From contig AP026126.1 in NCBI GenBank assembly GCA_030295235.1, positions 1,240,001-1,304,000 of the forward strand: a DNA stretch of 64,000 bases, given 5' to 3'. Origin of the DNA: Fistulifera solaris. Lineage: Eukaryota. Of this stretch, positions 1,196-2,912 are shown piece by piece. Each line of letters starts with the position of its first letter. Within the stretch, counting starts at the first letter, position 1. A program made the translations under genes and the position numbers. The notes below the pieces were generated by a model. The model made no database searches, was not told the DNA's origin, and saw only the letters and a list, made by a program, of their open reading frames with translations.

Positions 1196-1353
1196 TAAAA
1201 TGCAAGTCAAAAACAAGTGTGCAGAAGATAAAAGATTTCAATAGTTAAAGAGTAGGAAACACGTATACTAATACTGACTAAACTCTCTAGGCTAAAGTAC
1301 CTCAAACAAATGATGGTGAGAGGGTGTAATCCTGCGACATCACAAATTCATCT

Positions 1354-2475
1354 TTAAAGCCAGTCGACGGCATCCAAAAGGAACTCTCCGAATTCAGGAT
1401 CGGCTTGCAACTCCGACAAAACAGTATTTTCCGCCTGGTCGAAACAGGGAAACAAGGTGCTGTCAATTGGATCCAAGTTGAGGGTTTCTACCGATGACTG
1501 ACAAGGATCCGGTTCAAGATACGGAGACGGGTCGGGAAGAAGAGGAAGCTGAGATGAGCCAGTGATCTTCACTGCTGGAATGGTGATCTTAGTGTTGTGA
1601 AAGTAGGATGGTATCCATTTTCAGCAACGACAAAACGAGAGCATGATCAGCCTTTAATCTGTCACATTAAGTGGTTGGGTGCAATAGCCATAGTGACATT
1701 TGCTTAGAACAGACGAAAATGACTGAAAAATTCAATCATACGTGCTGTGGGCTGGAACAGATCTACGGGGGTGCTCGAGTCCTGTCTTGTTAAGGTGAAT
1801 GATTCTTGACTAAGCTTGTCGAGAGATCATCTTAGATGGCTCAAATCCCACCTCTTCTTCCACGTCGCTGTCTTCATTCTTTACCATAACCTTGTCTGCA
1901 AAAGAGAGAAACGTAGTTGAAGTGGGTGAGGACCGGGGAGTTACCGTCTTAGCTTCCTGGGGAGGAGGAGTCTCAGATCGTGTCGTTCGTAACAGGATGA
2001 GCTCAGCTGATTCCGAAATGTAATTTCGTCCTTCTTCGTGAGCTTTAATTTTGCTCACGACAGTTTCGTATTTTTCTTTCCATTCTTCTAATTCAGTTTC
2101 TAATTCGTTGATGCGGTCGCGCTGACGTTGGCGACTGGCTGCAGCACTTTCCCTATTACGCTTGCGTCGCTGTTCCCTTCTCCAAGCAGCGGCTTCTTCC
2201 CTTGTCATGGGAATTTCCGGATTGTACTTCATCTGAGGCTTCTTCTCAGCATGTTTCATTCCCTTGTCGAGTACTTCCAGCTTGGGCCGCTTAGTGCCAT
2301 CGTGCGAGCTCGAACAAGAAGATTCATCACTGCTACTGCTGCCGAAGCTACTACGTTGCGTGACAAGAATTTCACGGCGACGCTTTCGCGCTTCACTTGG
2401 AGAATCATTCAGGAATGCAATACCATCCTGAGCGAAAGAAGGAACGAGAAGGGGTTGGGATACTACAGCCGTCAT
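1354..2475 (-). CDS. bZIP transcription factor, HAC1/XBP1-like organisation; unspliced ORF 2475-1810 plus in-frame acidic C-terminal exon 1574-1354
   Basis: Basic region RRKRNRESAAASRQRQRDRI followed by a leucine heptad (LETELEEW). The downstream ORF is in the same frame and ends in an acidic/hydrophobic tail (EFGEFLLDAVDWL). Confidence 0.85.
1575..1814 (-). other. Putative IRE1-type unconventional intron, 240 nt
   Basis: 5' hairpin AUGAU-UCU-GAC[AAG|CUUA]GUC-AGA-AUCAU and 3' hairpin UUC[CAG|CAGU]GAA. Joining after the third loop base (G) in each gives in-frame R-Q-A-V-K-I-T and removes the TAG. Confidence 0.6.
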
Positions 2476-2818: not shown

Positions 2819-2912
2819 TACGTCATTTCACATGCACTTACGTCATCACTCTGGTCACAATGTCACAATTGGGTCACGGGTGTAGGGTCACGGTCACGGG
2901 TAAAGGGTCACT
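2819..2912. promoter_or_regulatory. Motif cluster upstream of the bZIP gene
   Basis: TACGTCA (reverse complement TGACGTA) at 2819 and 2839, and six GTCAC copies between 2854 and 2911. Confidence 0.4.

Follow-up and report, generated by a model that had tools for sequence, protein, structure and literature searches.

Gene organization at the locus

The minus strand of a 64,000-nucleotide (nt) stretch of the Fistulifera solaris genome (contig AP026126.1 of assembly GCA_030295235.1, positions 1,240,001 to 1,304,000; hereafter the window, numbered from its first letter) carries, from position 2475 to position 1354, a gene for a bZIP transcription factor. The mRNA of this diatom gene contains an intron of 240 nt, which is probably of the non-spliceosomal type known from HAC1, XBP1 and bZIP60 and is likely to be cut by the nuclease IRE1.

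The open reading frame (ORF) starts with the ATG at 2475 and runs to ..ATG ATC TCT CGA CAA GCT TAG; this stop codon occupies 1812-1810, and 221 amino acids are encoded by the unspliced form. A second open frame on the same strand (1572-1357), in the same phase and 240 nt downstream, encodes VKITG..EFGEFLLDAVDWL and is closed by a TAA at 1356-1354. When G1815 is joined to C1574, the sequence reads CAA-GCA-GTG in frame and the spliced ORF has a computed length of 293 amino acids; the expected spliced mRNA across the junction is ..CGACAAG|CAGTGAAG... Exon 1 extends from the ATG to G1815 (1815..2475), the intron (1575..1814, CU..AG) contains the TAG of the unspliced ORF, and exon 2 (1354..1574) comprises the last two bases of the Ala codon, 72 codons and the TAA, and encodes an acidic C-terminal tail. 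An earlier note, made from the letters of the window alone, had described the bZIP ORF, its stop codon and the in-frame acidic exon downstream; all three lie where it had put them, and its joined reading Q-A-V is borne out by the 293-amino acid ORF.

The basic region and leucine zipper correspond to residues 96-148 (2032..2190), which match Pfam bZIP_1 with an E value of 2.3e-8 and 34.4 bits (cut-off 27.6; a spliced relative, P0001, scores 36.5 bits). The basic region WRREQRRKRNRESAAASRQRQRDRI is nearly invariant among the 29 relatives aligned below, and no Pfam family matched the exon 2 tail. Splicing alters the C-terminus, extending the protein from 221 to 293 amino acids, and the conserved tail is restricted to the spliced forms.

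A non-canonical junction in RNA contigs

The RNA evidence consists of assembled contigs, in which rare forms may be missed, from four runs (X1 to X4) of the seven listed. X3 and X4, taken to be RNA, come from the same coded organism and study. In each of these two runs a single 57-nt contig joins position 1573 to position 1814 (plus-strand numbering), skipping 240 bases. The joint is ambiguous by three letters (AGC), and its four possible placements give intron ends AG..CC, GC..CA, CT..AG and TT..GC, none of which is canonical. The junction from 1815 to 1574 that had been predicted is therefore present in RNA contigs of two runs, exactly as placed. The joined contig has a depth of 35.5 in X3 and 41 in X4, against 11.1 and 8.6 for the unspliced contig spanning 1547-1843, depths which, being those of contigs, cannot quantify the two forms.

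The earlier note had also named the rival GT-AG junctions leading from 1884 or 1851 to 1588, and none was seen in the contigs of X3 or X4. The exon contigs of X3 (1360-1576 and 1814-2489) are unbranched, and the pieces from X4 (1366-1576 and 1814-2157) are branch-free over the same places; no joint at 1588, 1851 or 1884 was therefore assembled. The joint was not found in X1, a run that covers all 30 bins including intergenic DNA and whose nature as DNA or RNA is a guess, which argues against a deletion in the DNA. X2, a freshwater metatranscriptome (share 0.26), covers only 1433-1607 and 2177-2381, and includes a contig that runs from exon 2 into the intron without the joint; such coverage bears neither on habitat nor on absence.

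A second version of the locus, which is an allele or homeolog, was found in X3 and X4; it differs from the window at 14 of 217 nt in exon 2 and at 18 of 202 nt in exon 1 (about 6-9%). It occurs alongside the window version in X1, and is the sole version in X3 and X4 outside the stretches in which the two are identical. According to the ends of the X1 contigs, these identical stretches are 1547-1603 and 1731-1950, and they span both cut sites; the middle of the intron (1604-1730) contains one deletion and no fewer than 15 differences. This comparison rests in part on contig boundaries, and 39 further differences are unplaced. At position 1903 all contigs of X1, X3 and X4 have a G, and the window has an A.

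The intron in related genes

DNA sequences of relatives were collected by one profile scan of metagenome contigs, which returned 110 relatives, 80 of which were kept: 17 spliced contigs, 51 contigs with the intron and both sites, and 12 others. After near-duplicates had been left out (L020, L025, L027, L036, L045, L062 and L078), 44 intron-bearing contigs remained, which together with the window form the set of 45 sequences used for the counts below. Among the 12 others, three have the 5' site only (L014, L029 and L079), three end before the site (L012, L048 and L049), and six are more distant bZIP genes with neither site (L060, L064, L068, L070, L071 and L075).

Intron length in this set ranges from 120 to 787 nt (median 304) and leaves a remainder of 1 on division by three in 21 sequences, of 0 in 15 and of 2 in 9. 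At any placement consistent with the product, GT-AG, GC-AG or AT-AC ends are possible in none of the 45, and eight introns finish with CG, TG or GG in place of AG. Read in the frame that the junction imposes, exon 2 stays open for at least 67 codons to a stop in 42 sequences, the contig ending first in the other three; 41 of these 42 frames end in WL, the different one being that of L073. The unspliced frame stops directly after the Ala codon in 22 of the 45 and at most two residues from the junction in 35. Exon 2 itself lacks a start codon, and its frame differs from that of exon 1 in 30 of the 45.

Spliced and unspliced forms of nearly the same gene are represented by L040 and L046, whose exons 1 and 2 are 99.9% and 100% identical and which differ by an intron of 457 nt. 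The unspliced contig L043 ends in A8, which is not encoded in the genomic contig L045; the intron-bearing mRNA of this relative is therefore polyadenylated.

Two distant relatives (L073 and L079), with basic regions reading ..SRNKTRARIDELE.. or ..SRKKIQGRVGELE.., keep a 5' hairpin with the loop AAG|CAUA and may come from outside the core diatoms. L073 has an intron of 120 nt, a 3' loop CCG|CAGU and a divergent C-terminal end. In L029 (810-873) the 5' site reads GAC-CAGCAGUAUA-GUC, a 10-nt loop with an extra CAG, and the 3' site was not recognised on that contig.

Protein relatives and gene models

Searching longer proteins with the exon 2 peptide gave two matches among 65 candidates. The first (P0001, 276 amino acids, from a 966-nt contig) contains a bZIP domain, reads ..KMISRPA|VKITGSS.. 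and represents the spliced form; the second (P0002) reads through the 3' end of the intron as ..KITIPAVKITG... With P0001 as the query, 625 proteins among 2857 candidates matched with an E value of 0.001 or below, of which 120 were listed, and an all-against-library search yielded 626 cluster representatives. The proteins fall into two classes, those covering about 72% of the query (205-260 amino acids, often from long genomic contigs) and those covering 96-100% (270-400 amino acids, mostly from transcriptomes). The named sources are Synedropsis, Cylindrotheca fusiformis, Pseudo-nitzschia multiseries, Fistulifera solaris and a Bacillariaceae metagenome-assembled genome (MAG), as well as Durinskia and Nonionella, which are diatom-bearing hosts.

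Twenty-nine of the 120 listed proteins were aligned, comprising 22 taken for full-length and seven short ones. The motif [SF]R-x-A is directly followed by VKI in 20 of the 22, while the remaining two are genome gene models with a forced canonical intron: P0108 from Pseudo-nitzschia multiseries, which reads ..SRHATSSIPAVKI.., and P0061 from the Bacillariaceae MAG, which reads ..TTMITIPAVKI... A C-terminal motif like EFGEFLLDAVxWL is present in all 22 full-length proteins, and the seven short proteins end with the Ala or directly behind it. The position of the junction agrees across independent collections (MMETSP/EukProt proteins, JGI contigs and Logan contigs), and clusters formed at 90% identity mix the two forms, with, in one example, proteins of 313 amino acids (from contigs of 1230-1235 nt) standing beside proteins of 242 and 71 amino acids (from contigs of 1518-1550 nt).

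The public gene models of this family are wrong, either truncated or provided with canonical introns that add or drop residues. Cut at the intron stop codon are the window's own 221-amino acid entry (P0003; NCBI, UniRef) and F. solaris FisN_4Hh033, which is 92% identical to it. The models P0108, P0061, P0031 and P0003 are all either truncated or carry a forced GT-AG intron, which adds TSSIP or turns ..SRxA into ..ITIPA.

The two cut sites

The 5' site of the window lies in a stem-loop (1798..1831, minus strand) in which 1831-1826, 1824-1822 and 1820-1818 pair with 1810-1808 and 1806-1798. GAC/GUC closes the 7-nt loop AAG|CUUA (1817-1811), the outer helix consists of GAUGAU/AUCAUU, and the cut separates the third loop position from the fourth (1815/1814). 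The earlier note had drawn this hairpin, with the stop codon and the loop inside it, and it is indeed the local minimum free energy (MFE) structure, at -8.7 kcal/mol.

The hairpin is conserved among the relatives, a point that the same note had proposed to check, with changes on both sides of pairs. GAC/GUC with a 7-nt loop was found in 46 of 47 sequences, a G-C pair having changed to U-A in two (L031 and L043). In the gap-free alignment of the site 69.4% of the cells are paired, compared with 28-44% in slid registers; changes on both sides occur at seven of 13 pairs (for example U-A in 21 and A-U in 15 sequences at columns 16/45), and the covariation score of 0.150 was not reached by any of 500 shuffles (0.097 +/- 0.012). 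The 7-nt loop is part of the MFE structure in 37 of 47 sequences folded singly, against 13.9 +/- 2.8 in flank-shuffled controls (maximum 19 in 100 trials), and a hairpin of at least 9 base pairs (bp) forms in 36 of 47, against 6.6 +/- 2.2 (maximum 13 in 100 trials); the sequences being related, these control figures are not probabilities. The outer arms vary by lineage (GAUGAU/AUCAUU, AGAG..GAU/AUCCUCU, GAGAA/UUCUC or UAAUC/GAUUA). RNAalifold, applied to the gap-free alignment, retained only the three inner pairs, because the outer arms shift register between lineages, and the sequences were for this reason folded individually. On either side of the cut, position -1 is G in all 45 sequences, and position +1 is C in 42 and U in three.

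The 3' site (1564..1588, minus strand) can be written as GAUC-ACCA-UUC[CAG|CAGU]GAA-GAUC, with the loop at 1577-1571 and the cut at 1575/1574. Its loop sequence C-N-G|C-A-G-U is present in 45 of 45, N being A in 37, C in five, U in two and G in one. The flanks are conserved as well, with the intronic ..CC-N-CU..AAGAUCA(n)(U)UC before the loop and GAAGAUC after it. Three base pairs (UUC/GAA) close the loop in 32 sequences, four or five in ten, and two in three; beyond this stem, a bulge of 1-7 nt is followed by GAUC/GAUC. The hairpin UUC[CAG|CAGU]GAA that the earlier note had placed at 1580-1568 can thus be drawn, but it is not the local MFE structure: the window folds here as CAGUGA/UCACUG in a short context and as GAUC..CAUU[CCAGC]AGUG..GAUC in a context of 321 nt. 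The conservation expected of this site holds for the loop and does not extend to compensatory changes; both arms are invariant, and covariation speaks neither for nor against the 3' stem.

The sequence CUAAGAU precedes both cuts on the minus strand of the window, in exon 1 (1841-1831) and in the intron (1593-1583), and does so in most relatives. It could be a common recognition element or the trace of a duplication.

A helix between the two exons

In all 45 sequences a 56-nt segment of exon 1 whose end lies 20 nt short of the 5' cut pairs with a 59-nt segment of exon 2 that begins 12 nt after the 3' cut. These zipper duplexes have energies of -30 to -61 kcal/mol and comprise 29-44 pairs (median 36); every one has a z score below -2 when the exon 2 strand is shuffled, with a mean of -5.3. 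In the window the exon 1 strand (1836..1887) and the exon 2 strand (1508..1562) pair as approximately 1887-1836 with 1562-1508, at -49.0 kcal/mol against -29.5 for shuffled sequences (z -5.6). This cognate pair is more stable than those formed with any of the 44 non-cognate exon 2 strands. For the set as a whole, the cognate pair is the most stable in 39 of 45 when compared with exon 2 strands less than 70% identical (means of -40.7 and -22.2 kcal/mol), which indicates that the two coding segments co-evolve.

The folding of the window from 1860 to 1540 (321 nt) is likewise more stable than expected, at -91.3 kcal/mol against -71.0 +/- 4.6 for shuffled sequences (z -4.4), with none of 100 shuffles as good. 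The zipper ends 20-27 nt from the 5' cut and 12-15 nt from the 3' cut, distances bounded by the windows chosen. As the helix starts a few bases from both hairpins, it would hold both loops on one platform, with the body of the intron between them. A helix between the intron ends (the first against the last 60 nt or so), which served as a control for the zipper test, is not conserved, with a mean z score of -0.47 and values below -2 in seven of 44. G-U pairs make up 5.6% of the zipper, and A-C oppositions outnumber G-U on the mRNA strand.

Proposed mechanism and alternatives

Taken together, these results make it likely that the mRNA of the bZIP gene at 2475..1354 carries a non-spliceosomal intron of the HAC1/XBP1/bZIP60 type, with IRE1 as the probable nuclease. 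Chance is a poor explanation, because the RNA junction lies at the predicted place, both sites are kept in the 44 contigs, and the 321-nt fold has the z score given above. In the mechanism that we propose, the unspliced, polyadenylated mRNA would be translated up to the TAG just inside the intron, giving the 221-amino acid protein with a DNA-binding domain and no acidic tail. An endonuclease, most likely the endoplasmic reticulum (ER) stress sensor IRE1, would then cut after the G in AAG|CUUA (1815/1814) and in CAG|CAGU (1575/1574), while the zipper of about 36 bp would bridge the long intron and keep both sites, and afterwards the severed exon ends, close to each other. A ligase of the tRNA type would join the exons, and the spliced 293-amino acid protein would gain 72 residues ending in EFGEFLLDAVDWL, an acidic and hydrophobic tail that is probably an activation domain. 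ER stress would presumably be the trigger.

Several observations weigh against this interpretation. The depths of the junction and unspliced contigs in X3 and X4 total only about 47-50, compared with about 113-179 on the exons, and the RNA status of both runs is a guess, although one X3 contig bears an A24 tail, the contigs neither quantifying the forms nor proving the absence of any. Taken alone, the hairpins of the window are within chance, with z scores of -1.8 (13 of 200 shuffles as good) and -1.7. The 5' loop departs from CNG|CNGN (or CNG|ANGN), as the earlier note had cautioned for positions -3 and +3 in the window, and the departure holds across the 45 sequences: at position -3, 27 of them have C and 18 have A, and only five have G at position +3. 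The 7-nt-loop hairpin at the 3' site is weak, usually of 3 bp, and is the MFE structure in none of the 45, and a rival register with a 5-nt loop (CAUU/AGUG) has at least 4 bp in 33 sequences and at most 2 bp in 12; where CAUU is missing, the lineages have (C/U)UUC/GAAG in its place, a point in favour of the 7-nt register. On average the antisense duplex of the zipper is more stable than the sense one (-44.0 against -40.7 kcal/mol, sense being better in 14 of 45), and as it is not the weaker of the two, this asymmetry test does not support selection on the sense RNA. Finally, an Rfam scan of window positions 1300-2000 at E values up to 10 matched no family, although Rfam 15 includes the metazoan Hac1/Xbp1 intron (RF04247).

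A different reading of the same structures, which we regard as doubtful, is a distinct kind of structure-guided splicing, in which the roughly 36 co-evolving base pairs of the exons present two minimal hairpins of 3 bp, the 5' site, which is without two of the three loop bases needed by yeast Ire1, is cut by an IRE1 of relaxed and hitherto undescribed specificity or by a second nuclease, and the peptides encoded by the paired exon segments are shaped mainly by RNA complementarity.

It is somewhat less plausible, and in our view improbable, that a nuclease other than IRE1 is guided mainly by the exon-exon helix and the hairpins, or that IRE1 cuts only the 3' site and another enzyme the 5' site. 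The -3 C is missing from the 5' loop in 18 of 45 sequences and the +3 G in 40. The Saccharomyces cerevisiae enzyme is reported to require a motif that includes both bases, CNG|CNGN in a seven-membered loop (PMC6037481). Further points that would suit another nuclease are the length of the zipper (median 36 pairs), far greater than that of XBP1, and its near-fixed distances to the cuts, 20-27 and 12-15 nt, within bounds set by the windows chosen. Against this, the 3' loop sequence matches the IRE1 motif perfectly in all 45, and both cuts would fall behind the G that stands third in a 7-nt loop, as is the geometry of IRE1, and would lie in hairpin loops and not in the bulges of a bulge-helix-bulge. 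The host gene, moreover, is a bZIP gene with a C-terminal swap, as is, to our knowledge, every known substrate of IRE1 splicing. The specificity of Ire1 also varies by species, the same source giving CUG|CAG for mammalian IRE1alpha and UG|C with variable loops for Schizosaccharomyces pombe (PMC6037481).

Less probable again is a spliceosomal intron with non-canonical ends whose retention in part of the transcripts is regulated and has nothing to do with IRE1. In most sequences the 3' end does look like a normal acceptor, and this too counts against IRE1: its pyrimidine-rich ..UUCCAG| follows a conserved CUAAG at a distance of 14-20 nt, much as an acceptor follows a branch site, and CAG| itself is present in 37 of 45. 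The transcript assemblies hold spliced and unspliced forms, as they would for a retained intron, and in-frame GT-AG alternatives exist, both in the gene models P0061 and P0108 and in the window (1884 or 1851 to 1588). Yet no sequence of the 45 allows GT-AG, GC-AG or AT-AC ends, eight end in CG, TG or GG, and the intron starts with C/U-A-N-N inside a conserved hairpin loop, without a 5' splice-site consensus. CUAAGAU is also found before the 5' site in exon 1, where it makes no sense as a branch point. In the proteins the non-canonical junction appears in 20 of the 22 full-length sequences, the exceptions being the two genome-derived models, and X3 and X4 are without a joint at 1588, 1851 or 1884.

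That the junction is an artefact, produced by a reverse transcriptase jumping across the base of the helix at a microhomology or by an assembly error, is very improbable: although the microhomology of 3-8 nt (three letters in the window, up to seven, CCAG|CAG, in relatives) and the very stable helix beneath the junction would both favour template switching, exon 2 is conserved coding sequence without a start codon and off-frame in 30 of 45, readable only through this junction, which speaks strongly against such an origin, and the junction has the same position in the MMETSP/EukProt, JGI and Logan collections and is deeper than the unspliced form in X3 and X4.

Upstream region and neighbouring gene

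Two TGACGT motifs (CRE/ACGT core, where CRE denotes the cAMP response element) lie on the minus strand at 2845-2840 and 2825-2820 (2820..2845), 20 nt apart and some 350-370 nt ahead of the start codon at 2475, and are tentatively counted as part of the system. The window of 64,000 nt contains 29 TGACGT on both strands, and at least one occurs within 700 nt upstream in 12 of the 17 related loci for which upstream DNA is available. From their sequence, the two may be putative bZIP sites in the gene's own promoter, allowing autoregulation through a site like CRE or the unfolded protein response element (UPRE). Just upstream of the pair, at 2850-2915 on the minus strand, is a cluster of GTGACC repeats (..AAGTGACCC..CCGTGACCGTGACCC..CCGTGACCC..TTGTGACA..TTGTGACC..), which may be a second kind of promoter element.

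On the plus strand, an ORF at 353-1195 (280 amino acids, rich in Q and E) converges on the bZIP gene. Where this neighbouring gene ends, one X3 contig bears a loose A24 tail (at 1287), which probably marks the poly(A) site of the plus-strand ORF; the bZIP stop codon at 1354 is only about 70 nt away.

Comparison with known systems

IRE1-driven splicing of mRNA has been described for HAC1 in fungi, XBP1 in animals, bZIP60 in land plants and bZIP1 in Chlamydomonas. No description of splicing of this type in a diatom or any other stramenopile was found by full-text searches of openly licensed PMC papers and bioRxiv, and an earlier description elsewhere is possible. The Chlamydomonas message CrbZIP1 is processed by CrIRE1 when the ER is under stress, the two being the only such pair named in the part consulted of a 2026 review on microalgal lipids (PMC13545648), and a 2026 review on non-canonical splicing names XBP1, HAC1 and bZIP60 (PMC13149111). 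The long exon-exon helix is new here and goes beyond the earlier note. If the proposed mechanism is correct, diatoms, a major group of marine primary producers that also serve as hosts in biotechnology, would gain their ER-stress transcription factor, and with it the long-missing stress switch of the diatom endoplasmic reticulum, which could be read out by reverse transcription PCR (RT-PCR) as a size shift of 240 nt. The 45 sequences, with their variable 5' loops and co-evolving zipper, would then be a natural series of substrates from which the requirements of IRE1 and of the ligase could be studied.

As in HAC1 of S. cerevisiae, which is processed by Ire1p and tRNA ligase, the host is a bZIP gene, the intron is long (252 nt in HAC1) with a stop codon just inside it, and splicing replaces the tail of the protein, the new C-terminus of HAC1 being activating. 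In both systems the cuts follow a G, in loops that would be seven-membered at the diatom 3' site as well, and the diatom 3' loop fits the CNG|CNGN motif (PMC6037481). Unlike HAC1, the diatom gene has a relaxed 5' loop, only 3 bp closing each loop, and the co-evolving exon-exon helix of about 36 pairs. Pairing between the 5' untranslated region (2600-2476) and the intron, which in HAC1 blocks translation, is a further point of difference and is not supported in the window (z 0.05), where the true 5' end of the transcript is not established.

The likeness to metazoan XBP1, which depends on IRE1alpha and RtcB, includes the bZIP host, two stem-loops, of which the 3' one is putative, cut at G|C, and a 3' site CAG|CAGU close to CUG|CAG. 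A zipper-like structure that holds the exons and coordinates the two sites is also described for XBP1 (PMC6037481), and splicing causes a frameshift in 30 of the 45 sequences, as it does in XBP1. Unlike the XBP1 intron, given as 26 nt in PMC4084626, those described here measure 120-787 nt and lie between the hairpins, and the window intron is a multiple of three, so that its removal takes out the stop codon without shifting the frame.

With plant bZIP60 and Chlamydomonas bZIP1 the diatom gene shares its occurrence in photosynthetic eukaryotes. The plant introns, unlike those of the diatoms, measure 20-23 nt, and their splicing removes a transmembrane domain; the unspliced diatom protein has none, since it just terminates. 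Plants and Chlamydomonas are placed in a different eukaryotic supergroup from diatoms, and if the proposed mechanism is correct the splicing of bZIP messages by IRE1 would extend to a third supergroup, which bears on the age of the mechanism.

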